A stretch of 64,000 nt of DNA from an uncultured bacterium (GTDB lineage: Bacteria > Verrucomicrobiota > Kiritimatiellia > CAIKKV01 > CAIJXV01), in the NCBI GenBank assembly GCA_903824675.1, contig CAIJXV010000088.1, forward strand, positions 7,318 through 71,317. The letters run 5' to 3'. A program made the translations under genes and the position numbers. Positions within the stretch are counted from its first letter, which is position 1. Each line of letters begins with the position of its first letter. Shown here piece by piece: positions 51,228-63,435 of this stretch. The notes beneath the pieces were generated by a model. That model did no database searches and was not told where the DNA came from. It worked only from the letters and a program-made list of their open reading frames with translations.

Positions 51228-51359
51228 TTTGGTCGGAATACGATGCGTAACGGGGCGCGGGGCGTCGGGCGGTGGCCGGTCTTGCGATTCGAGTTGAAAA
51301 GTGCTAAAATGTAAAAATTAAGTTTAAACTGGATGGCCAGCGGCAAGGAGACGGGTATT

Positions 51360-54062
51360 ATGAAAATCAGCGTGCAGATTTTATGCCTTTCCCTGTTATG
51401 GGTGACCCTGGTAGGGCGGCTGAGTGCGGCTGACTATTATGTGGCGACCAATGCAGTCCCGGCCTCGCCCTACAACGTCTGGTCCAAGGCGTTTACCAAT
51501 GTCCAGGATGCGTTGAATGTGGCGCGAGCCAACGACACGATCTACCTCGCCGGCCACGTGTTTGGGATTACGAATCAACTCAGTTGGACGGGGTTGGCCT
51601 ACGCGGTCACGATTCGCGGCGGGTATGTTGCCACCAATGAAACCAATCTGCCCGGCAGCAACAACCCGGCGCTTTGGCCGACGGTCATTGTGCGCACCTC
51701 AGGTACGAACGGCATCTGGATGCTCAACGGCGTAACGAACGGCACGCTGGCCCAGGTCACGATTGCCGGTGGCAGTAATACCTATAGTGGGCAGACGTAT
51801 GGCGGCGGACTTTATCTGACCAACTGTTTTGGACAGACGATCTCCTCTTGCGTCATCAGCGGGAATGTTGCTCGATCCACGTTGAATCATGGATATGCCT
51901 TCGGAGGCGGCATTTGTCTCGCCAAGAGTTCCGTAGTCCTGACCAATTGCGTGGTATTGCAGAACAAGGCGATCAGTGAGGGGAATTTTACGAGTGATGC
52001 CGGTTTGGGCGGCGGGTTGTTTGTGGCGGGTTCTGCGACCGCGACGGTTCGGGATTGTGTTTTCACCCTGAATGACGCGAATAATAACCTCTATCGTTAC
52101 GGCCAGGGCGGGGGTATTTATGCCGCCGGCACGGTGGTTCTCAAGAACTGCCTGTTGTTTGCCAACCGATCCTATACGGTGGGAGATGGACTTTATGTGA
52201 CGTCCGGGATTACCCGCGTCGAGAACTGCACGGTGGCCAGCCATGCCGACGACGGGATATACCGGGGGTCTGGCAGTTTCTCGGTCAGCAACTCCATCAT
52301 CTGGGACAACGGTGACGATATTGTGGGAACAGGAACCCTGGCGTATTGCTGTATCCAGGATGGCGATAGCAATGGAGTGAATGGTTGCATCAGCTCGAAT
52401 CCCCGTTTCGAATACGGCTATTATCTGCCGGCTGACAGTCCCTGTACCAATGCCGGATCGATGAGTGCGATCGACGCCGGACTCAGCGCTTACACGACGT
52501 TAACCAATGGGCAGGTGGATGGCGATACGGTGGATCTGGGTTATCACTATGCCGGCGCCTTCGATCCGACCTACTTGGATTTGTATGTTGCACCCGCACC
52601 AACGGGTAGTGATGGGTACGTCGGAACGGATCCCCTGTTCCCGCTGGCGACTATCGGCAAGGCGATTGCGAAAGCGAGGGATGGCAGTCGGATCCACATC
52701 GCCTCAGGCGCTTACACCAATGGTGCGGAGTCCTTCCCCCTGATACTGCTTGGCAAGGTGGGCGTACAACTCCTTGGAACGAACCGGGAGACGACCGTGG
52801 TGAGCGCTTCCGGGAGCAATCAACGGGTATTCACCCTGGTGGGGGCGCCCCTGAGTCGCATCGAAGGGCTTTCTGTCAGAGGAGGGAAATTCGCGGTAGC
52901 GGGAACCAGTTATGGCGGGGGTGTTTACGTCGACTCTTGTGGCGGAACGATTCTGGCCTCCTGTACTGTCATCAGCAATCGGGTGGAACCGTCGCTTTGG
53001 CATGCCCAAGGTTACGGCGGGGGCTTGGCTTGCATTGGGGGTTCATTGCTGGTTTCGAACTGTCAGTTCAGTTATAACGCGGCCTCGGGGTATGGCGACT
53101 CCGCGACCGATTTCGGTCGCGGCGGCGGCGTCTATGCGGGGGGTGAAGTGACGATCCGCGATACCGTTTTTAATATGAATGACGCAGTTTACGATAATCT
53201 CAGCAACGTTCGGTCCGGAGAAGGGGGCGGGGTATACGGAAACGGGCCGGTGGTGTTGAAAAATTGCCTGTTCTATGGAAACCGGGCGTTTGCCGCGGGT
53301 GACGGGATATGTGTGGGTGGGGGAACCTCGCGGGTCGAGAACTGCACTGTGGCCAATCATGCCGACGACGGGATCTACCGTTCGGGTGGTGTTCTATCGG
53401 TGAGCAACTCGATTGTCTGGGAAAACGGCGATGACATCACCGGCGTGGTCAGCCTGGCCTATTCCTGCATTCAGGACGGGGACAGCAACGGGGTCAACGG
53501 GTGTATTAATACGGATCCGTTGTTCGAGTATGGCTACTACCTGGGGGCGAATAGCCTATGCGTGAACACCGGCTCGATGAGTGCGGTGGCCGCGGGGCTC
53601 AGCGCATACACGACCCGCGCGGACGGACAGACTGACTCCGGGACCGTGGATTTGGGTTATCACTATAGTGCGGGTGCTGATTTGGGATATGCGGATCTTT
53701 ACGTGGCCCCGGCGCCGACGGGAAGCGACGGTTATGTCGGAACAAATCCTCTCCTGCCCCTGGCCACGATCACGAAGGCGATCTCGCTGGCCCGGGATGG
53801 AAGCCGGATTCATTTGTCGACCGGAGCTTACACGAACGGACCGGAAACCTTTCCCTTGAGGTTGATCGGGAAAGGCGGCGTGCAGTTGCTCGGGACCAAT
53901 CGTGAGGCGACCGTGATCAACGCGGCGCGGAGCGGCCAACGCGTATTGCTCGTCAGCAACGCACCCAATACGCGGGTTGAAGGGGTGACGATTACCGGCG
54001 GGACGGCAACCAACTCCACAGTCACCTCCTGCGGGGGGGGGGATTTATATCGACAACTCTAG
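51360..54062 (+). CDS. Giant parallel beta-helix repeat surface protein, N-terminal portion, interrupted by a G10 frameshift
   Basis: SD aaggag 9 nt upstream of the ATG at 51360. Signal peptide MKISVQILCLSLLWVTLVGRLSAA. Repeated modules NCTVA(N/S)HADDGIYR...VSNSI(I/V)W(D/E)NGDDI...CIQDGDSNGVNGCI...DLGYHY. The frame ends 7 codons after the G10 run at 54033..54042. Confidence 0.75.
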   Translation: MKISVQILCLSLLWVTLVGRLSAADYYVATNAVPASPYNVWSKAFTNVQDALNVARANDTIYLAGHVFGITNQLSWTGLAYAVTIRGGYVATNETNLPGSNNPALWPTVIVRTSGTNGIWMLNGVTNGTLAQVTIAGGSNTYSGQTYGGGLYLTNCFGQTISSCVISGNVARSTLNHGYAFGGGICLAKSSVVLTNCVVLQNKAISEGNFTSDAGLGGGLFVAGSATATVRDCVFTLNDANNNLYRYGQGGGIYAAGTVVLKNCLLFANRSYTVGDGLYVTSGITRVENCTVASHADDGIYRGSGSFSVSNSIIWDNGDDIVGTGTLAYCCIQDGDSNGVNGCISSNPRFEYGYYLPADSPCTNAGSMSAIDAGLSAYTTLTNGQVDGDTVDLGYHYAGAFDPTYLDLYVAPAPTGSDGYVGTDPLFPLATIGKAIAKARDGSRIHIASGAYTNGAESFPLILLGKVGVQLLGTNRETTVVSASGSNQRVFTLVGAPLSRIEGLSVRGGKFAVAGTSYGGGVYVDSCGGTILASCTVISNRVEPSLWHAQGYGGGLACIGGSLLVSNCQFSYNAASGYGDSATDFGRGGGVYAGGEVTIRDTVFNMNDAVYDNLSNVRSGEGGGVYGNGPVVLKNCLFYGNRAFAAGDGICVGGGTSRVENCTVANHADDGIYRSGGVLSVSNSIVWENGDDITGVVSLAYSCIQDGDSNGVNGCINTDPLFEYGYYLGANSLCVNTGSMSAVAAGLSAYTTRADGQTDSGTVDLGYHYSAGADLGYADLYVAPAPTGSDGYVGTNPLLPLATITKAISLARDGSRIHLSTGAYTNGPETFPLRLIGKGGVQLLGTNREATVINAARSGQRVLLVSNAPNTRVEGVTITGGTATNSTVTSCGGGDLYRQL
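54033..54042 (+). repeat. G10 homopolymer at the frameshift point of the giant beta-helix gene
   Basis: gcGGGGGGGGGGat. With 9 G the translation reads ...CGGGIYIDNSSGSMVLSSVISSN..., continuing into ORF 54070..57783 and matching sister modules (GGGVYVDSCGGTILASC..., GGGVYIENCSGVTLASC...). Confidence 0.9.
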
Positions 54063-54069
54063 CGGGAGC

Positions 54070-57000
54070 ATGGTGTTGTCGAGTGTGATTTCCAGCAACA
54101 AAGCGGAGTCGATCTCGCCCGCCAACCACGTAATGGGCTACGGGGGAGGGGTCTATTGCGGCAGTGGATCCCTGATCCTGTCGAACTGTGTCATTTCCAG
54201 CAACGCCGCCATCAGCCGGGGCGATTGGGCGACCGATCCCGGTTGTGGGGGCGGCATTTATGCGGCGGGTATTGTGACCCTCCAGCGGTGTGTTCTTTTT
54301 CAGAACGTGGCGACCAACGGCAGTAACCCCTATGGTGAAGGGGGCGGCGTGTATGGCATGGGAACGGTCTTGTTGCGGAATTGTCTGCTCTACGGAAATC
54401 GGGCACGTTCGGCTGCGGACGCGATCATGGTGCGGGGCGGGCAGATGAACCTGGAAAACTGCACCGTGGCCAACCACCCGCGCGACGGGATCTGGCGCAC
54501 CAATGGAACGGTTGCGGTGACGAACTCGATTGTCTGGAATAACGGGGATGATATTGTGGGGCCGATGACGCTGGGTTACTCCGACATTGAGGATGGGGAT
54601 AATAATACCACCAACGGTTGTTTTAGCGTCAATCCCCAATTTGCGGATACGACGAATTTTCATCTTCTATCAAAGGCCGGTTACTATGGCGGTGGGTATT
54701 TTAGTGGCGGGAGTTGGTCCACGAATACCGCGGTGTCAAATAATCCCTGCATCGACATGGGGAATCTCGCTTCGCCGTGGTCGGCGGAGCCCGCGCCTAA
54801 CGGTAGGCGGGTCAATCTGGGCGCGTACGGGAACACGGAGGTGGCGTCCCAGACCTTTCTGGAGGAACCGGGTACGTTCACGAATTTAACCGTGCATGCT
54901 TATCCGTTGGCGATTGCGGATTTGGGACCGGACTGGGCGATTCTGAAAGGCGAGGTCCTGCATACGGGAGGGGGGGCGAATCCGCAGGCCTATATCTGTT
55001 GGGCCACCTCCGACAAGGGGACCAGCGGAACCGACCAATGGACGCATGTGGAATCCATGGGAGCCCGGGCGCAATGGGAGCCCTTTTCAAACAATTTGTC
55101 AGGGTTGGCCCAGATCGCCTACTGTTTTCGCTGCTACGTGACGAACGATGTGGGAGAGGACTGGTCTGCGCCGGTGGTGTTCGGGATTCTGGTGCCGGCG
55201 GTAACCAATACAGGGGCGAGTCCGGTACGTCGGCGTTCGGCCCGGCTGAACGGACAGATTCTGGACGTTGGGGGCAGTACGCCCAGCGCTTGGTTCCACT
55301 ATTGGAAAACGGGGGATTCTGTGACCAATGTGGTTGTGATGAACTCTCAAACGGGAACCTTTAGCGCGCTCCTGTCACCGCTCCCGGTTAATACCAGTTA
55401 CTCTTACAGGATTCTGGCGTCGAACAGCTCGGGAAGTGTGTGGTCGGACATCAAAACCTTCGCGACCTGGAGCGATCCGACCGGATGGTATGTGGCCACG
55501 AACGGCAGCGGTGCCGGAGGGACCAATTGGACGACGGCCTTCACCAATATCCAGGATGCGATGGATGAAGTGGCGCCCAGCGATACGGTGTACCTGGCCG
55601 CCCAACGGTTTGCGGTGGGGCGACAGATCGAACTGACGAACCGGACGGATGTCAGTGTCCGCGGCGGTTATGCCGGTGTTGGCACACCGGGAAGTTTCTC
55701 GGCGGATCCCACCGTGATCACGCGACTGGTGAGTATTGATTCGTTCCGTCTTTGGTACATCAGCGGGGTAACGAACAGCACGCTGGATCGGTTGACGGTC
55801 ATGGGGGCTTCGAACGCCCAGTACCTCGCGACCGTGTATGGCGGAGGCTTTATGGTCACCAACTCCTCCAATCTAACCCTCGCCTCCTGTAACCTCCTCA
55901 GTAATCGAGTGGAATCGGCTAACTGGCATAGCTACAGTTATGGAGGTGGTTTGTGTTGTATGGCCGGATCCTCCGTGCTGCTGACCAACTGTGTCCTGTC
56001 CTATAATCAGGCTTTCGGTTGCGGAGATTTCGGTGTCGGATACAACCCGGGCGACAATGGGTATGGCGGTGCCATTTGTGCTCTGGGCACCGTGACGCTA
56101 CAGGACTGCCGGTTGTTCATGAACGAAGTGGATACGATTACGGCGAGCAGGGATGCGGGGCGGGGTGGCGCGGTCTATTCCTCCGGCCTCTTATCGATGC
56201 GGAATTGTTTGCTCTATCAGAATCGATCCCTGGCCCCTGTCAGCGGGTGGGGTGATGCGGTGTATGTCGGCGGCGGGACGTCATCGTTTCAGAATTGTAC
56301 CATCACCAGTCATTCGGACGACGGAATCTGCCGCGCGGCCGGTCTGGTCTCGGTCAGCAATTCGGTGGTGTGGGAAAATGGCGATGACATTACGGGAGTC
56401 GTGAGTCTGGCCTATTCCACCATCCAGGACGGGGACAGCAACGGGGTCAATTATTGTATCAGCGCCGATCCGATGTTCGAGATGGGCTATTATTTGGGAA
56501 CGAACAGTCTTTGCGTAAATGCCGGATCGATGAGTGCGGTTGCGGCGGGACTCGCCAATTATACCACTCGAACCGATGGACAGGCCGACGACGGAACCGT
56601 TGATTTGGGGTATCACTACACTGCGGGTCTGGACACGACGTATGCCGATTTGTATGTGACGCCGGCGCCGGTGGGCAATGATGTCAATGTGGGTACGAAT
56701 CCCGCCCTACCGTTGGCCACGATTACGAAAGCGATCGCCACGGCTCTGGACGGAACGCGTATTCATCTTTCCGCGGGTTCCTATACGAATGGGGTTGAGA
56801 CGTTCCCGCTGACGATTCAGGGGAAGAGCGGAGTGCAACTCCTGGGGACCAATAAGAGCCTGACCGTGATTAATGCCTGGGGGAGTAATCAACGCGTGCT
56901 GGTGTTGAATAATGCTCCCTTTGCGCGGATTGAAGGCGTCACTTTGACCGGAGGAAAGCTGCTCACGGGCAGCAATAATAGTTATGGAGGAGGCGTCTAC

Positions 57001-57783
57001 ATTGAAAACTGCAGCGGCGTAACCCTCGCATCCTGTCAAATTGTGTCCAACCGGACGGAAGTCACGGGGAGCACTGTTCACTACCTGGGTGCCGGTGGCG
57101 GTGTCTACTGCGCGAACGGCTCTCTGACCCTCTCAAACTGCGTCGTGGCCACCAATATTGCCTTATGCGGTGGCGACCAGCCGGGGGATTCGGGCCGGGG
57201 TGGTGGAATCTATGCGGCCGGATTGGTAACCCTGCTGAACTGCGCTATATTCAAGAATGAGGCGGGCAACACGATGCAACAGCTCGGTCAGGGAGGCGGT
57301 CTGTTCGCCAGCGGGACCTTGTTGATGCGGAATTGCCTGGTTTATACGAACCGGGCTTATTCCCAGGGCGATGCCCTTTATGTGGGCGGGGGCTCTGCTG
57401 TTTTGGAAAACTGCACGGTGGCGAACCATGGGCGCGACGGAATCTGGCGGACCAATGGGACGGTGGCGGTGACGAACTCGATTGTCTGGAACAACGGCGA
57501 TGATATCGTTGGATCGGTGACCCTGGGTTATTCTGATATTGAAGACGGGGATAGCAACGGGGTGAATGGTTGCGTAAACAGCAATCCGAAGTTCGTCAAT
57601 GCGGCTATCGGTGACTTCAAACTCGGGGTGGGATCCGCGGCGATCAACTTGGGTCTCAAACAGGATTGGATGACGACGGCCTCCATCGACCTTGCCGGCA
57701 ACCCGCGACTGGTGGGGAGCACGGTCGACATGGGAGCCTACGAGTCGTCGTCCGGTCTCGGCACCATATTCACGCTTTACTGA
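54070..57783 (+). CDS. Giant parallel beta-helix repeat surface protein, C-terminal portion (same gene as 51360..54062 if G10 becomes G9)
   Basis: The same module family as the upstream ORF, including a second YVATNGSGAGGTNWTTAFTNIQDAMDEV N-terminal-type module. No independent RBS or signal peptide. Confidence 0.7.
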   Translation: MVLSSVISSNKAESISPANHVMGYGGGVYCGSGSLILSNCVISSNAAISRGDWATDPGCGGGIYAAGIVTLQRCVLFQNVATNGSNPYGEGGGVYGMGTVLLRNCLLYGNRARSAADAIMVRGGQMNLENCTVANHPRDGIWRTNGTVAVTNSIVWNNGDDIVGPMTLGYSDIEDGDNNTTNGCFSVNPQFADTTNFHLLSKAGYYGGGYFSGGSWSTNTAVSNNPCIDMGNLASPWSAEPAPNGRRVNLGAYGNTEVASQTFLEEPGTFTNLTVHAYPLAIADLGPDWAILKGEVLHTGGGANPQAYICWATSDKGTSGTDQWTHVESMGARAQWEPFSNNLSGLAQIAYCFRCYVTNDVGEDWSAPVVFGILVPAVTNTGASPVRRRSARLNGQILDVGGSTPSAWFHYWKTGDSVTNVVVMNSQTGTFSALLSPLPVNTSYSYRILASNSSGSVWSDIKTFATWSDPTGWYVATNGSGAGGTNWTTAFTNIQDAMDEVAPSDTVYLAAQRFAVGRQIELTNRTDVSVRGGYAGVGTPGSFSADPTVITRLVSIDSFRLWYISGVTNSTLDRLTVMGASNAQYLATVYGGGFMVTNSSNLTLASCNLLSNRVESANWHSYSYGGGLCCMAGSSVLLTNCVLSYNQAFGCGDFGVGYNPGDNGYGGAICALGTVTLQDCRLFMNEVDTITASRDAGRGGAVYSSGLLSMRNCLLYQNRSLAPVSGWGDAVYVGGGTSSFQNCTITSHSDDGICRAAGLVSVSNSVVWENGDDITGVVSLAYSTIQDGDSNGVNYCISADPMFEMGYYLGTNSLCVNAGSMSAVAAGLANYTTRTDGQADDGTVDLGYHYTAGLDTTYADLYVTPAPVGNDVNVGTNPALPLATITKAIATALDGTRIHLSAGSYTNGVETFPLTIQGKSGVQLLGTNKSLTVINAWGSNQRVLVLNNAPFARIEGVTLTGGKLLTGSNNSYGGGVYIENCSGVTLASCQIVSNRTEVTGSTVHYLGAGGGVYCANGSLTLSNCVVATNIALCGGDQPGDSGRGGGIYAAGLVTLLNCAIFKNEAGNTMQQLGQGGGLFASGTLLMRNCLVYTNRAYSQGDALYVGGGSAVLENCTVANHGRDGIWRTNGTVAVTNSIVWNNGDDIVGSVTLGYSDIEDGDSNGVNGCVNSNPKFVNAAIGDFKLGVGSAAINLGLKQDWMTTASIDLAGNPRLVGSTVDMGAYESSSGLGTIFTLY

Positions 57784-57804
57784 TAGACTCAACGCTCAAC
57801 GACG

Positions 57805-58098
57805 ATGGCGCCTCATTCGGCTGAGGCCGTTGTTCTCCGGGTGGGCGAACTATTACGGGTCATCGATGCGGTTGGGGGCCAACCAGGCGATTGGGTGGCT
57901 TTCAATGCCAATAACCTGGCTGAACGTTTCAGCCAGTCCCGGACACGGGTTGAAAACCGGGTGTACCGGATTACCCCGGGGGCACACCCTGTGGAGCAAC
58001 ACTCTGCCCCCGCAGGTGATGTTGACGGTGACGGACGATTCCAGCGGACATCACGATCTTATTTTTTAATGTTCTGGCCGATCCCGCAGGAAGAATGA
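57805..58098 (+). other. Possible remnant ORF (DUF1989-like fragment?) in a 500-nt leader region
   Basis: 97-aa ORF. GQPGDWVAFNANNLAERFSQSRTR weakly recalls the DUF1989 family. No RBS and no partner domains. Confidence 0.2.
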
Positions 58099-58216
58099 CG
58101 GTAGGAAATCAATTGTCGAAACCGGGTGTCTTTATCGAATTGCAGGCCGAAATGGATTGTGTGGTGGCGATATCGACGTGTTCAGTGCCCATTGCCGGCC
58201 GCTAAATTATTCTACA

Positions 58217-58238
58217 AACTTTGTATTGCAAAGTACTC
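58217..58238. promoter_or_regulatory. 22-bp palindromic operator-like site (copy 1) overlapping a sigma70-like promoter (-35 TTGCAA, 17-nt spacer, -10 TATCTT)
   Basis: ACTTTGTATTGCAAAGTACTCT has inverted half-sites ACTTTG-N5-CAAAGT. It sits 41 nt upstream of the ATG at 58279. A 20/22-identical second copy is at 59282. Confidence 0.6.
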
Positions 58239-58278
58239 TGTTATCTGCTATCTTGATTCTGGAAATCAGGAGGACCAG

Positions 58279-58887
58279 ATGATTGCCAACCATATTCATG
58301 ATGCCCTGGCGCAGGTTCGACGGGTCCAGGCGGTGATCCTGGAGCGGCGCGCGTTTCGCGGTTATTCGGGGGCCGCTCGGGCCGCGGGGGGATTGGCGGC
58401 GTTGGCGGGCGCGGCCGTCCTGTCGTCCCCTGGTCTGCCACAAACTGAATGGGCGCATCTGATCGGGTGGGGTGGAGTCCTGCTCCTCGCCGTAAGCATT
58501 AACTATGGGGCGCTTCTCTATTGGTTTCTTTTTGACCCGGATGCCCGACGTGAATTTCTCCGCCTCATGCCGGCAGTGGATGCCATTCCACCCCTGGCAG
58601 TGGCAGGCATTCTCAGCCTGACCCTTATCGTCCACGGTCAGTTCGATCTCCTCTTCGGCACCTGGATGTGTCTCTATGGCCTGGTTCATGTTCCGTATCG
58701 GCTCTCTCTGCCACGCGCCAACTACGGCATCGGGCTCTATTACATCTTTTGCGGCACCGTCTGCTTACTCACCCCCCTCGGCCAGTTCTTACACCCCTGG
58801 ACCATGGGTCTCGTGTTTTTTATCGGGGAAATCAGTGGGGGACTGTTACTCCATCAACATCGGCTGGTTCAGGAGGAGAAACCATGA
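58279..58887 (+). CDS. Hypothetical polytopic membrane protein
   Basis: SD aggagga upstream of the ATG at 58279. 4-5 predicted TM helices. The stop overlaps the regulator's start (ATGA). Confidence 0.6.
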   Translation: MIANHIHDALAQVRRVQAVILERRAFRGYSGAARAAGGLAALAGAAVLSSPGLPQTEWAHLIGWGGVLLLAVSINYGALLYWFLFDPDARREFLRLMPAVDAIPPLAVAGILSLTLIVHGQFDLLFGTWMCLYGLVHVPYRLSLPRANYGIGLYYIFCGTVCLLTPLGQFLHPWTMGLVFFIGEISGGLLLHQHRLVQEEKP

Positions 58888-59261
58888 ATACAAAAGTAGA
58901 GACCCCTTACGAACAGTTGGCGAAGGTTTTTCATGAACCCAATCGGCTATCCATAGTATCCGCCCTTTGCGCGGCGGCGGAGGGGCTGACGTTCAACGAA
59001 CTTCGCGATGACTGTAATCTGACGGATGGGAACCTCAACCGGCATCTGGCCGTATTGCGCGAGGCCGGGGTAGTGCGGACCGACAAAACGTTTGTGGACG
59101 AGAAACCGAGGACAACGGTGTTTATCACGCGGACAGGACTCGACCGGTTTCAAGAGTATTTGACCGCCCTCCAGGAAGTGTTGAAGACAGCCCAGAAGGC
59201 TATTCCGTCCGATAAAAAAGCGGCGCATTTATCCGGCGCCCTCCGCGCCGTCACGCGCTAA
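58884..59261 (+). CDS. Winged-helix transcriptional regulator (HTH_34 / ArsR-PadR-like small wHTH)
   Basis: EPNRLSIVSALCAAAEGLTFNELRDDCNLTDGNLNRHLAVLREAGVVR is a winged helix-turn-helix. 125 aa. ATGA-coupled to the upstream membrane protein gene. Confidence 0.7.
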   Translation: MNTKVETPYEQLAKVFHEPNRLSIVSALCAAAEGLTFNELRDDCNLTDGNLNRHLAVLREAGVVRTDKTFVDEKPRTTVFITRTGLDRFQEYLTALQEVLKTAQKAIPSDKKAAHLSGALRAVTR

Positions 59262-59281
59262 GCGCGTGTTTTTGGTCTTAT

Positions 59282-59303
59282 ACTTTGTAATGCAGAGTAC
59301 TCT
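59282..59303. promoter_or_regulatory. 22-bp operator-like site (copy 2), 25 nt upstream of the next operon's start
   Basis: ACTTTGTAATGCAGAGTACTCT, 20/22 identical to copy 1. Flanking sequence is unrelated. The downstream TATATA is -10-like. Confidence 0.6.
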
Positions 59304-59327
59304 ATATAACAACATCTGGAGGTGGAT

Positions 59328-60104
59328 ATGAACGGTGAAGTGGGATCGGAGAAGATCGGACCGCAAACAGGCGACGCCCCAAATTCAGCTTCGCCACCGC
59401 CCCTCCCGGGGCAAAGAGCCGCCCCTTGTTCCCGGCGCGAACCCTTGCAGGCGGATGCGGGAATTCTGGCGGTGGCCGATGCTCTGCTCAAGAGTCCGGG
59501 GGCCATTAGGCAGGAGGTTTTACATCGTAACCACCGGGTTCGCTTCCTCCTTCTAGGGCTGGTGCTCGCAGGTACCGCCGCGTATGGATTGACGATGGGT
59601 TCTTTTTCCGGCGGAATGCAACTCTGGGCCGTGCCTCTAAAAACCATGAGCATGGTGCTTTTCAGCGCGTTGCTGTGCCTCCCGAGCCTTTATATTCTTA
59701 CCGCCCTGGGCGGGGGTGAACGGAATCTGACGCAGGTGGCGGGCATTTTGCTCCAGGCTCTGGGACTGACCAGCCTGCTGTTGCTGGGCTTTGCTCCGAT
59801 TGCCTGGATCTTCTCGCAGTCGACCTCTAGCCTCGGGTTCATGGGGGCGCTTCACATGGTGTTTTGGGGTATTTCACTCGCGGTCGGTCTGCGCCTGTTA
59901 TTCAAAGACGTCAATGCCGGGCAGTCGGGGCAACCGGCCGGGATGTTGGGTTTATGGTGTGTGGTGTTCTGTGCCGTTTTGTTGCAGATGGGCACGGTGC
60001 TTCGCCCTCTGATCGGCCCCGCGGATCGGGTTCTGGAGAGCGGCAAAAAATTCTTTATTGTGAATATCGGAGAGACTCTGGCGGAGGCGCCGCACGAGCG
60101 GTGA
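59328..60104 (+). CDS. Hypothetical membrane protein (paralog family A)
   Basis: SD ggagg upstream of the ATG at 59328. Multiple TM helices. Its core aligns with the next ORF (G..YG...G....L.AVK.PLL.FS.LL). Confidence 0.55.
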   Translation: MNGEVGSEKIGPQTGDAPNSASPPPLPGQRAAPCSRREPLQADAGILAVADALLKSPGAIRQEVLHRNHRVRFLLLGLVLAGTAAYGLTMGSFSGGMQLWAVPLKTMSMVLFSALLCLPSLYILTALGGGERNLTQVAGILLQALGLTSLLLLGFAPIAWIFSQSTSSLGFMGALHMVFWGISLAVGLRLLFKDVNAGQSGQPAGMLGLWCVVFCAVLLQMGTVLRPLIGPADRVLESGKKFFIVNIGETLAEAPHER

Positions 60105-60110
60105 TCGAAC

Positions 60111-60833
60111 ATGGGCAACGGACTGACCGAAATAGGAGCATTGTGTCGCATGAACCGGCTGATGGCGTCCCAACTGGCGGACGCGGATGCAGCGGGCTTG
60201 CGGCGGGTCATGGTCGGGATCGTGCTGGGAGGTCTGATTTATGGCTTTTGTTTCGGAGTCTGGCGATCCCCGTTACAAGGCCTTTATTCGGCTGTCAAAA
60301 TGCCACTCCTATTTTTCAGTGTGGTGTTGGCAAGTGCGGTGATCAATACCTTGATCGCCCGGGTGGCGGGTTGCAGCCTGCGGTTGGGACAGGTGTTGGT
60401 GTGCATGCTGACGGCCTTTGCGGTCATGGCGGCGGTGGCGGGGAGTCTGGCGCCGGTGGTGGGACTTTTTGTGATGTGCGCTCCGGTTCCTCGGAGTGAG
60501 CCGGCTGTGGCGGCACAGGCTTACCGCGCGTTGCTCCTCCTGCATGTGGGGGTATTGGCGCTGGCCGGTATCATTGGAAATCGTCGAGCCCTGCGCCTGT
60601 TGGAAACCATGGTGGGGGAGAAACGACGGGCGCGGAGGGTGGGACTGGTCTGGTTGTTGACGGCGGGATTTGTAGGCTGCCAACTCTCGTGGTTGTTCAG
60701 CCCCTTCCTTTGCAAACCGACACAGGAACCGCACCTGTTGCCGCGTGAGTATTTTCAGGAAAACTTTTATGAAAGGGTCTGGCACACGCTGCGGGCACTC
60801 AACAATCAGTCATTGGAAGAAAGGAGCGGGTGA
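60111..60833 (+). CDS. Hypothetical membrane protein (paralog family A)
   Basis: 6 nt downstream of the previous stop. TM-rich. Paralogous core to 59328..60104. Confidence 0.55.
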   Translation: MGNGLTEIGALCRMNRLMASQLADADAAGLRRVMVGIVLGGLIYGFCFGVWRSPLQGLYSAVKMPLLFFSVVLASAVINTLIARVAGCSLRLGQVLVCMLTAFAVMAAVAGSLAPVVGLFVMCAPVPRSEPAVAAQAYRALLLLHVGVLALAGIIGNRRALRLLETMVGEKRRARRVGLVWLLTAGFVGCQLSWLFSPFLCKPTQEPHLLPREYFQENFYERVWHTLRALNNQSLEERSG

Positions 60834-60834
60834 A

Positions 60835-63435
60835 ATGAAAAAATGGGCATTGATCATTTTGGTGGGATTGCCGATTCTCGGATTGTGGGGGTTGGGGCGT
60901 TTGGGTCCCGAAGAGATCGCGCCCTACTTGGAATTTCCACCTTTAACCCGGCACGTGCCCCATGCGCCGTTTTCAGCGTGGGTTTTTCTGGGGCTGGCGG
61001 CGTTCATAGTGCTGGGCATCCTTCCCTTCGTTATTGCCATGGTACGGGGACGGCTCTCCGAAGAGGTCCCGACCGAACGAGGCACGAACCGTCCATTCCC
61101 GTGGTGGGGTTGGTGCGGGTTAGCCTTTACACTGGGGGCCTGGATTATGGCTTGGACCCGGTTCCCCTGGTTTGCCGGATTCCAAGCCTTTACCTTTTCT
61201 CCCTTGTGGGTTGGATATATCGTTGTGGTCAACGCGGTCACGGCGTGGCGCAGTGGTCGCTGTATGTTGGTGGACCGGCCGCGCCAGCTGTTGGGCCTGG
61301 CACTTCTGAGCGCCGGGTTCTGGTGGTACTTCGAATATCTGAACCGTTTTGTGCAGAACTGGTATTACGTTGGGGTGGCCAACTTGTCCGCTTTCCAATA
61401 CTTCCTTTATGCCACTCTGCCTTTTGCCACTGTTTTACCTGCCGTGATGGGCACGTTTGAATTGCTCCAGACCTTTCCACGCCTGTCGACCGGGCTGAAA
61501 CATTTGCGGCCCTTGCGAATCATGCATCCGAAAGGGGCGGCGGCCTTCATCTTGCTTTTGTTCGGGTTCGCTCTGGCGGGAATTGGGGTGTGGCCCGATC
61601 TCCTTTTCCCTGTGCTTTGGCTGGCGCCCTTGGGAATCCTGACCTGTCTGCGAGTTTTGCGGGGGAAACCGACGATCTTCGCGAGCCTCGCCCAAGGAGA
61701 CTGGCGGAGTGTGATCCTGCTGGCACTGGCGGCCTTGATCTGTGGGTTCTTTTGGGAGATGTGGAACTTCGCGAGTCTGGCCAAGTGGATCTACGCGATT
61801 CCCTTCGTGAATGCGGTCCATCTTTTTGAAATGCCGATGCTCGGCTATGTCGGGTATCTGCCCTTCGGTCTCGAGTGTGCGGTGATTGCCGCGGAATTCT
61901 TTCCAGAACATCAGCCAGAGTCGCGGGCGACAGGTCCACAGCCGGTATCCAGTTCGCGGTTGGGGCGGGTGACCGGCACGGTCAACGCGGCACTGTTGGC
62001 TTTGGTTGCGGTATTCATTTTTTGGGCGCCGGCGGGTCTGTTGGTCAACAATTTACGTGATCCAGCCTGGCGGACCGGGGCGGTGCCGGAACTCGCCTGG
62101 AAACTGCATCGGAACCTGGCGCCGCGTTATGCGCAATGGGCGCGGGAGCGGGTGGCCTCGGGTCGCGCCGCGCACCTGGCGTTGCGCGATGTCCCGAGCA
62201 CCGAATGGCCGATCTTCGGTTCCGTCTATTTCTTGTGGGCCACGGAGAAATTACAACAGGAATGGGAGAAGGATCCATCGCATTCAACCGTGGCGCCCCG
62301 GGTGTATGCGCGCGAGGCCATCGAAGTGGCGGCGGATTTGGTGATGGATCCAGTTCATCACACCTGGGTTCAAACGCACTGGGGCACCAACTACCTGCAT
62401 CGGGAGAATGTATTTTTCCGTTCGTTACTCATCGCCGGCATGACGGTCCGCCAGAATCTGTTGCAGGATGATCGTCATCTGGATCAATTGCGAGATCAGG
62501 TGGAAACCCTCGCGGCGGAACTGGATGCCTCGCGGCTGGGGATTCTGAATGATTACCCCGATGAATGTTATCCGATCGACGTATTTGCCGCATGGGTTTG
62601 TATCCAACGCGCAGACCGGGTGTTGGGAACAGACCACAGCCGGTTTTTAGCACGAGCCCGTCGCGCTTTCGAAGGCCAAATGCTGGATGGCGTCGGCCTG
62701 GTGCCATTCGTTTCGGATCCCGATACCGGGGAACAATATCAACCTTCGCGGGGTACCGGTAATTCGTGGGTGCTCCTGCAGGCCCCCGAGCTATGGCCGG
62801 ACAAGGCGGCTGACTGGTATGCGCGATACGAGACGCACTTCTGGCAGGACCTGGGCTGGGCCGCCGGTTTTCGCGAGTTCGATCGGGAACTAAAGAACCC
62901 GGAGTATGAATGGGGCTATGACGTGGATTCCGGACCGATCCTGGCCGGGTTCAGTGCGGCGGCCAATGCGTTTGGGATGGCGGCTGCACGGGTGAATGGT
63001 CGGATGGACCAGGCCTGGACTTTGTCGAGCCAGGTTTTGGCCGCTACCTGGCCGCTGCCGAACGGGCAACTGCTGGGGCCCCGAATTCTCTCCAGTTCGG
63101 GGCATGCTCCTTATTTGGGTGAGGCCTGCCTGCTCTACCTGATGGTCCAGACGCCCGCATCCGGCGTGCCGGTGGTACAGGGGGGACATATGCCGCGCTG
63201 TGTTTATTATGGGCTGGCCTTTTATCTGGCGGGCGGGTTTCTGTTGCTGGGATTAGCCGCATGGATTTTCCTGCGCGCCTGGCGAGGAAAGATCCCGGTG
63301 TTTGGGTTGGGCTTTGTCATGTGGGGGATATTGTTGGCGGCAGGAATCGGGCTGGTCATAACGGGGCGAGTCGTTATGGCTGCTGCTGTGCTGGTAATGA
63401 TGCTGGTGGCACCCAGGATCCGGAAATGGGTTTGA
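60835..63435 (+). CDS. Large (866 aa) polytopic membrane protein with a ~450-aa soluble domain and a C-terminal TM bundle
   Basis: SD aaggagcggg upstream of the ATG at 60835. ~10 N-terminal TM helices rich in W, F and Y. A central hydrophilic domain. 3 C-terminal TM helices. No recognised family. Confidence 0.6.
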   Translation: MKKWALIILVGLPILGLWGLGRLGPEEIAPYLEFPPLTRHVPHAPFSAWVFLGLAAFIVLGILPFVIAMVRGRLSEEVPTERGTNRPFPWWGWCGLAFTLGAWIMAWTRFPWFAGFQAFTFSPLWVGYIVVVNAVTAWRSGRCMLVDRPRQLLGLALLSAGFWWYFEYLNRFVQNWYYVGVANLSAFQYFLYATLPFATVLPAVMGTFELLQTFPRLSTGLKHLRPLRIMHPKGAAAFILLLFGFALAGIGVWPDLLFPVLWLAPLGILTCLRVLRGKPTIFASLAQGDWRSVILLALAALICGFFWEMWNFASLAKWIYAIPFVNAVHLFEMPMLGYVGYLPFGLECAVIAAEFFPEHQPESRATGPQPVSSSRLGRVTGTVNAALLALVAVFIFWAPAGLLVNNLRDPAWRTGAVPELAWKLHRNLAPRYAQWARERVASGRAAHLALRDVPSTEWPIFGSVYFLWATEKLQQEWEKDPSHSTVAPRVYAREAIEVAADLVMDPVHHTWVQTHWGTNYLHRENVFFRSLLIAGMTVRQNLLQDDRHLDQLRDQVETLAAELDASRLGILNDYPDECYPIDVFAAWVCIQRADRVLGTDHSRFLARARRAFEGQMLDGVGLVPFVSDPDTGEQYQPSRGTGNSWVLLQAPELWPDKAADWYARYETHFWQDLGWAAGFREFDRELKNPEYEWGYDVDSGPILAGFSAAANAFGMAAARVNGRMDQAWTLSSQVLAATWPLPNGQLLGPRILSSSGHAPYLGEACLLYLMVQTPASGVPVVQGGHMPRCVYYGLAFYLAGGFLLLGLAAWIFLRAWRGKIPVFGLGFVMWGILLAAGIGLVITGRVVMAAAVLVMMLVAPRIRKWV

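Follow-up and report, generated by a model that had tools for sequence, protein, structure and literature searches.

Winged-helix repressors that control their own synthesis through palindromic operators are textbook material, and some ArsR/SmtB repressors, such as BigR, HlyU and NolR, have no metal site. In the Sdp system the membrane protein SdpI sequesters the ArsR-type autorepressor SdpR and the operon is derepressed (PMC2910880). The locus described here lies in a 64,000-nucleotide (nt) stretch of DNA, "the window", from an uncultured bacterium of the Kiritimatiellia (assembly GCA_903824675.1, contig CAIJXV010000088.1, positions 7,318 to 71,317, forward strand). One operon encodes a membrane protein, M1, and a small winged-helix regulator, REG. 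A second operon encodes three further membrane proteins, M2, M3 and M4, and a B12-binding radical S-adenosylmethionine (SAM) enzyme. A copy of the same 23-bp element precedes each. Judged from the sequence comparisons below, it is highly likely that REG binds both copies and likely that it represses both transcription units, its own included; we put the probability of this reading at about 0.75. An earlier annotation, made from the letters of the window and called here the sequence-only reading, had described the genes of both operons correctly and had proposed a self-contained two-operon regulon under autoregulating repression by REG. No literature was found on HTH_34/PF13601 regulators or on the motif of the element. 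No member of the family appears to have been characterised; the family, its operator and its membrane partner would be new to description.

The two sites, ACTTTGTATTGCAAAGTACTCT at 58218..58239 and ACTTTGTAATGCAGAGTACTCT at 59282..59303, both on the + strand, are identical at 20 of 22 bases and have unrelated flanking sequences. The sequence-only reading had found this pair and its unrelated flanks, with the second site placed correctly and the first (as 58217..58238) one base too far left. When both strands of the window were searched for the 22-mer with up to 3 mismatches, as that reading had proposed for the genome, only these two sites and no third match were recovered; 100 dinucleotide shuffles of the window gave 0 matches. 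The looser pattern ACTTTG-N5-CARAGT with 2 mismatches gave 9 matches against 4.7 expected and is not enriched beyond the two sites. A weight matrix for the element was built from 99 homologous sites of other genomes. It scores 39.4 bits at operator 1 and 29.4 bits at operator 2; the best unrelated position in the window reaches 9.1 bits and the maximum of 20 shuffled windows is 13.6 bits. The 22-mers end 39 nt before the first start codon of the first operon (ATG 58279) and 24 nt before that of the second (ATG 59328), the same, within counting conventions, as the 41 and 25 nt claimed before.

Comparison of 80 genome loci and at least 120 metagenome loci showed that the conserved unit is 23 bp long, with the consensus ACTTTG-yrTTG-CAAAGT-ACTTTG. 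It has three pentamers in the order CTTTG, N5, CAAAG, N2, CTTTG. The first two form an inverted repeat whose centers lie 10 bp apart, as is usual for a site bound by a winged-helix dimer. The second and third form another inverted repeat, CAAAG-N2-CTTTG, that overlaps the first. The ACTTTG-N5-CA(A/G)AGT repeat of the sequence-only reading thus stands, but the AGTACT said to follow it is the junction of pentamers 2 and 3, and its tail is the start of a third half-site. This half-site is ACTCTG at site 1 and ACTCTA at site 2, against the consensus ACTTTG. Operator 1 (58218..58240, + strand, ACTTTGTATTGCAAAGTACTCTG) therefore has the pentamers CTTTG, CAAAG and CTCTG; in operator 2 (59282..59304, + strand, ACTTTGTAATGCAGAGTACTCTA) the third pentamer is CTCTA. 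Homologous elements were sorted into class U, upstream of M1, and class D, at most 300 nt after REG. All three pentamers (C2-G6, C12-G16 and C19-G23) are kept in both classes, and positions 2, 3, 5, 13, 15, 16, 20 and 22 are 95-100% invariant. Positions 7-11 are conserved in class U only, where they double as a promoter -35 element. At the metagenome loci L091, L144, L173, L183 and L200, which belong to a distant subfamily, the 23-mer has the opposite orientation to the M1-like/REG operon and stands directly after a canonical TTGACA-17-TATAAT promoter, and the third pentamer, which makes the element asymmetric, is thus not always gene-proximal.

The association of the element with REG extends over large evolutionary distances. 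At least 574 loci with REG homologs turned up when species-representative genomes were scanned, and the analysis used the best 80, which belong to Kiritimatiellia/Pontiella, Lentisphaeria/Victivallales, Verrucomicrobiota, Calditrichia, Acidobacteriota, Planctomycetota, Binatia, Bdellovibrionales and "Deltaproteobacteria" metagenome-assembled genomes. The class-U element is present upstream of M1-REG in 66 of the 80, from at least 8 phyla. The class-D element, found within 300 nt after REG in 33 of 80, precedes varied envelope or membrane genes. Only 6 further sites scoring at least 15/17 occur across the 787 kb examined (about 0.1 expected, as estimated from base frequencies); no fewer than 3 of these stand directly before a displaced M1 or M4 gene (L005, L037, L059). 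In relatives whose proteins are 75-92% identical the flanks can no longer be aligned, and the 23-mer is kept (21-23 of 23 positions at site 1, the pentamers at site 2). We know of few transcription-factor motifs that are recognisable over such distances.

Metagenome contigs, scanned for exact ACTTTG-N5-CAAAGT-N-CTTTG, yielded at least 120 sites. Among the 120 matches listed, 52 are accompanied by a REG-family gene (33 in class-U position, 10 in class-D position and 9 in other arrangements), and 11 more have an M1-like open reading frame (ORF) right after the site on a contig that ends before REG. At least 63 of the 120 listed sites are thus beside REG-family or M1-like genes, many of them on short contigs. 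These REG-family proteins are 30-43% identical to REG of the window and carry the recognition helix TDGNLSSHL. Since the same element accompanies regulators so diverged, it would be conserved across a much wider HTH_34 subfamily. The specificity of the site, and the fixed positions in which it accompanies the regulator gene in phylum after phylum, argue that the two sites in the window are REG operators.

REG (58884..59261, + strand) is a 125-residue protein with an ArsR-like winged-helix fold. The sequence-only reading of this gene as a winged-helix regulator is borne out by a match of residues 21-99 to PF13601 HTH_34 (73.8 bits, cut-off 27; E 1.3e-20). The ArsR-type models HTH_5 (PF01022; 34.7 bits, cut-off 22) and HTH_20 (PF12840; 43.2 bits, cut-off 27) also match. 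Against the NCBIfam models REG scores 39.7 bits for the metalloregulators (NF033788), below the cut-off of 55, and 19.1 bits for SdpR (NF033789), where the cut-off is 100. The closest solved structures are PH1061 (1UB9) and ArsR (6J0E). Homologs of REG number more than 1,100, most of them from the Planctomycetes-Verrucomicrobia-Chlamydiae (PVC) group; in 24 that were aligned the recognition helix LTDGNLNRHL is invariant. Pfam and NCBIfam scans showed REG to be the sole DNA-binding protein of the module, and its surroundings in the 80 loci have no other conserved DNA-binding gene.

Metal-site motifs, read from the REG sequence, gave neither a CxC in alpha-3 (LTFNELRDDC) nor a His-rich alpha-5 (GLDRFQEYLTALQEVL). 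Two cysteines, C29 and C44, are invariant in the PVC-group homologs. Cysteine or metal sensing was rejected as the general signal of REG, as these positions are Leu, Val or Thr in the wider family that shares the operator; in PH1061 they are Leu. C29 and C44 are probably buried core positions, the alternative being a lineage-specific thiol switch.

M1 (58279..58887, + strand; Shine-Dalgarno AGGAGG at 58268..58273) is a 202-residue orphan membrane protein. It lies directly upstream of REG in 76 of the 80 loci. Its stop codon overlaps the REG start codon as ATGA (58884..58887), and the gaps are short in most loci; judged by this arrangement, the two genes are co-transcribed. An AlphaFold2 model (mean predicted local distance difference test, pLDDT, 81) has an N-terminal helix followed by six transmembrane (TM) helices. 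The N-terminal helix, MIANHIHDALAQV, is nearly invariant among homologs, and the positive-inside rule would place it in the cytoplasm. All 622 homologs are annotated "hypothetical". M1 gave no Pfam hit (E<=0.1), no NCBIfam or PDB profile match and no significant Foldseek match to a fold in the PDB. We hypothesize, by analogy to SdpI, that M1 is the most plausible sensor for REG, because it is a conserved partner whose translation is coupled to that of REG and whose N-terminal helix hardly varies.

Operator 1 coincides with the predicted promoter of the M1-REG operon. A -35 element, TTGCAA (58226..58231, + strand), lies inside the operator at element positions 9-14, and a -10 element, TATCTT (58249..58254, + strand), follows after 17 nt, 8 nt beyond the operator. 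TTGCAA occurs at positions 9-14 in 54 of 59 homologous class-U sites; these positions are unconserved in class D. TAnnnT occurs at positions 32-37 (+/-1) in 48 of the 59, and in the class-U frequency matrix the TA of this -10 reaches 74% and the T 78%. In 42 of 59 loci the distance from the start of the element to the M1 start codon is 58-63 nt, and an A-rich stretch lies upstream of the element. From this conservation the class-U promoter is taken to be of the sigma-70 type, TTGCAA-N17-TAnnnT, with its -35 and spacer inside the operator. A simple sigma-70 scan of 57700..60200 gave no promoter, TATCTT being under its threshold (8/12 matches), and the site-1 promoter emerged from cross-genome conservation only. 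The sequence-only reading had both sites overlap putative -35 and -10 elements. At site 1 this is right for the -35 and wrong for the -10.

Transcription of the first operon is predicted to start near 58261, about 20 nt downstream of the element. Operator 1 would therefore not be transcribed from the M1-REG promoter, as the conserved -35 and -10 put the start downstream. This bears on the idea that the element acts as an RNA hairpin (CUUUG...CAAAG) in 5' leaders and controls translation or stability. The inverted repeat can form a stem of 7-8 bp, the whole leader has a z of about -2.3 and the class-D element is just before the Shine-Dalgarno sequence. Nevertheless such a function is extremely unlikely: the class-U element would be left out of the transcript, the stem is invariant rather than covarying (99-101 of 101 identical at position pairs 2/16, 3/15 and 5/13) and the third pentamer is unaccounted for. 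A search of 57900..59500 with the Rfam 15 covariance models gave a single chance-level snoRNA match (E 0.78).

Operator 2 lies in a different setting. The M1-REG operon is predicted to end at an intrinsic terminator (59252..59273, + strand) with the hairpin CACGCGC-TAA-GCGCGTG (59252..59268) followed by TTTTT. The loop of the hairpin is the REG stop codon TAA (59259..59261). The hairpin is kept in two relatives, L001 and L203, with a changed loop in L203; site 2 is also kept in both, despite diverged flanks. Site 2 begins 8 nt after the T-run, and in class D generally the T-run of the terminator tail is at positions -15..-7. Class-D sites have unconserved positions 7-11 and no fixed -10 downstream, and often no more than 13-25 nt separate them from the next start codon. 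An uncertain -10 candidate, TATACT (59279..59284, + strand), which we infer from its position, overlaps the 5' end of operator 2. The class-D consensus at positions -2..+3 is T-A-T-A-C-T, with frequencies of 42-100%; L203 has TATGCT there. A weak alternative, TATAAC (59305..59310, + strand), abuts the 3' end.

These features suggest the following mechanism. REG, presumably as a dimer, would recognise the inverted pentamers CTTTG-N5-CAAAG and would also need the third CTTTG, 7 bp further on. On operator 1 it would cover the -35 TTGCAA and the spacer of the M1-REG promoter, and because these are covered REG would repress its own operon. Operator 2 sits between the REG terminator and the M2 ribosome-binding site, and REG bound there would shut off the M2-M3-M4-radical SAM operon. 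The signal would most likely reach REG through M1, whose N-terminal helix may tether REG to the membrane or let it go, in the way that SdpI acts on SdpR. Autoregulating repression, as the sequence-only reading had proposed it, is consistent with both the geometry and the comparative genomics, with the following qualifications.

Some observations weigh against this mechanism. First, repression at site 2 is argued from position only: the scan and the class-D comparison gave two weak candidate -10 hexamers, no recognisable -35 and no convincing promoter there, and on this point the sequence-only reading is not borne out. At site 2, if not elsewhere, REG might then bind and work as an activator or a dual regulator. 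A protein centered at about -30 to -18 could recruit or remodel RNA polymerase in MerR-type or class II style. Class D has neither a TTGCAA -35 nor a fixed -10, no sigma-70-like promoter was detected at site 2, and a TATAAT-like hexamer abuts the 3' end of the site (TATAAC in the window; TGTAAT and TGTAAT in two relatives), which would place the element over the spacer and the -35 region. Activation is still unlikely. Operator 1 lies on a complete, seemingly self-sufficient promoter. In the distant relatives with an inverted element, a perfect TTGACA-17-TATAAT promoter of the M1-like/REG operon stands directly before the element, and the element is at about +1, a repressor position. The position of the operator thus varies and always overlaps the core promoter, a pattern expected of a repressor and not of an activator. 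ArsR-like proteins are almost always repressors.

Second, the inverted repeat made with the third pentamer overlaps the first repeat, and one dimer cannot use both. Third, at least about 20 of the exact metagenome copies have flanks long enough to judge and no REG or M1-like gene nearby. The genes after these orphan copies encode other membrane proteins, an MMPL-type transporter, ABC ATPases and a ferritin-like protein. Part of the copies may belong to the regulon at a distance from REG, and part may be chance matches; the regulon may thus extend beyond the two operons. The 64 kb searched, and these copies beside other genes, do not allow the two-operon regulon of this genome to be called self-contained. 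The orphan copies, together with the service of the TTGCAA part as a -35-like hexamer in class U, would also fit a 23-mer that is a promoter element or the site of some unlinked factor, such as an alternative sigma or a global regulator, with REG nearby incidentally. We consider this very unlikely. The pentamers are kept in class D, where the -35-like center is not; the element is palindromic and is found in phyla with differing promoter conventions and at varied positions relative to promoters. It is tied to REG-family genes at 66 of 80 genome loci and at least 63 of the 120 listed metagenome sites, and the neighbourhood holds no other conserved DNA-binding gene. Fourth, M1 has no detectable similarity to SdpI or to any known protein, and its signalling role is argued from gene order, coupling and conservation only. 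Repression of both units by REG remains the reading that we prefer.

The second operon begins with M2 (59328..60104, + strand; 258 residues; Shine-Dalgarno GGAGG at 59318..59322), followed by M3 (60111..60833, + strand; 240 residues). Both are membrane proteins with no family match in Pfam or NCBIfam. Paralogy of M2 and M3 could not be shown (BLASTP E 0.25). M4 (60835..63435, + strand) has 866 residues, with an N-terminal polytopic membrane domain of about 385 residues and a C-terminal domain of a family related to linalool dehydratase/isomerase (LDI). Its start at 60835 was set by homologs, which do not use the GTG at 60745 of the ORF list. An AlphaFold2 model of the M4 N-terminal domain has a pLDDT of 89 and gave no significant fold match in the PDB. 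This domain is strongly conserved and novel, with the motifs FWWYFEYLNRFVQNWYY and CGFFWEMWN. The family profile of the C-terminal half matches LDI over about 280 residues (E 1e-12), and PF18566 is found in a distant M4 homolog, P0289; the window copy of this half, queried alone, gave no PDB match.

The last gene of the operon (63450..>64000, + strand) runs past the end of the window. It encodes the CPWRCEFC motif, and its homolog in GCA_041445565.1 is a full-length protein of 469 residues with PF02310 (B12-binding) and PF04055 (Radical_SAM) domains, in agreement with the radical SAM gene of the sequence-only reading. The gaps between the four genes are 6, 1 and 14 nt. In one homolog, P0333, the M4 membrane domain is fused to a B12 radical SAM enzyme in place of the LDI-like domain. 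This fusion suggests that M4 and the radical SAM enzyme act in one pathway, of unspecified chemistry.

The genes downstream of REG in the 80 loci include the M4 N-terminal domain in 39, M3 in 15, M2 in 13 and the radical SAM gene in 1. Elsewhere, class-D sites are followed by genes for CreD, B12 radical SAM/DUF4070, UPF0047 (YjbQ), ferritin/COQ7-like, DUF4184/phospholipase-C-like, DUF6688 and PAP2 proteins, as well as M2, M3 and M4. Together the genes presumed to be regulated suggest an envelope or membrane-lipid function. In two Calditrichia loci a gene after the class-D site (L063, 6593..7378; L066, 6555..7385) has, by eye, the hallmarks of an isoprenyl (undecaprenyl) diphosphate synthase; the gap is more than 100 nt and the link to the operator is uncertain. 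Tentatively, M1-REG could be an undescribed pan-phylum membrane-to-DNA module, in which an orphan six-TM sensor uses its conserved cytoplasmic N-terminal helix to bind or free an HTH_34 repressor, and the 23-bp operator marks out a conserved envelope or membrane-lipid stress regulon that in this lineage includes M4 and the radical SAM enzyme, a wider picture that is possible but well short of probable. If it is true, M4 with its LDI-like domain and its B12 radical SAM partner may modify isoprenoid or other membrane lipids.

The module is rearranged even between close relatives. In L201 and L202, where M1 is 89% identical, an inserted DUF6688_C gene separates M1 from REG (6651..7541 in L201, 5308..6243 in L202). 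The terminator and site 2 are absent, and M4 and the radical SAM gene come directly after REG in the same operon. The downstream genes would there be under a single operator, which supports a functional link between the two transcription units of the window.

Upstream of the M1 promoter lies a 97-residue ORF (57805..58098, + strand) that matches only the first ~60 of 168 positions of the DUF1989 model, a urea-amidolyase-associated family. This ORF, between an adhesin gene and the promoter, has the look of a truncated remnant; the same short DUF1989 gene is annotated in the nearly identical assembly GCA_041445565.1. It is preceded by two tandem genes (51333..54062 and 54070..57783, + strand) for highly repetitive, paralogous giant proteins of 909 and 1237 residues with weak beta-helix matches (DUF1565/Pel9A-like). 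These are probably surface adhesins or polysaccharide-active proteins.

With the operator defined, the regulon can be computed for any genome in which the module occurs, and the cultured hosts include Pontiella and Victivallis. The operator also ties families of unknown function to one response, namely M1, M2, M3, the M4 membrane domain, DUF6688 and the CreD/PAP2/UPF0047 neighbours.

Compared with known systems, the nearest structure is that of PH1061 of Pyrococcus horikoshii (PDB 1UB9), which matches REG with E 3e-9 from the single sequence and 3e-12 from the profile and shares the recognition-helix signature T-x-G-N-L-x-x-H. PH1061, however, is an archaeal structural-genomics protein that has no known function or operator and no reported M1-like partner. 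For M4, the profile match and the PF18566 domain of distant homologs resemble LDI (PDB 5G1U and others). M4 differs in that its LDI-like half is fused to a large novel membrane domain and is unmatched when the window copy is queried alone; from such likeness no enzymatic activity can be inferred. With the ArsR/SmtB repressors REG shares the winged-helix fold, and it would share autoregulation through an inverted repeat that overlaps its own promoter, with which the position and conservation of the operators fit. In contrast, the best match of REG is PF13601 HTH_34 and not the ArsR models, it has neither an ELCVCDL-type site nor an alpha-5 His/Asp/Glu metal site, and its operator is a 23-bp element of three pentamers and not a 12-2-12 repeat.

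The best working model for M1-REG is SdpR/SdpI of Bacillus subtilis, by analogy: both have a small ArsR-like winged-helix regulator and a six-TM protein of ~200 residues in one operon. M1-REG may work like this pair and is not a member of it, because REG and M1 fail the tests for the SdpR and SdpI families: REG scores far below the SdpR cut-off, and M1 has no SdpI match in Pfam or by structure. The gene order is M1-REG here and sdpR-sdpI there. Unlike Sdp, the M1-REG module has no toxin gene, occurs in many Gram-negative phyla and would also control a second operon. The class of mechanism is an ordinary one, and what sets this locus apart is that operator, regulator and orphan membrane partner are conserved jointly across many phyla.

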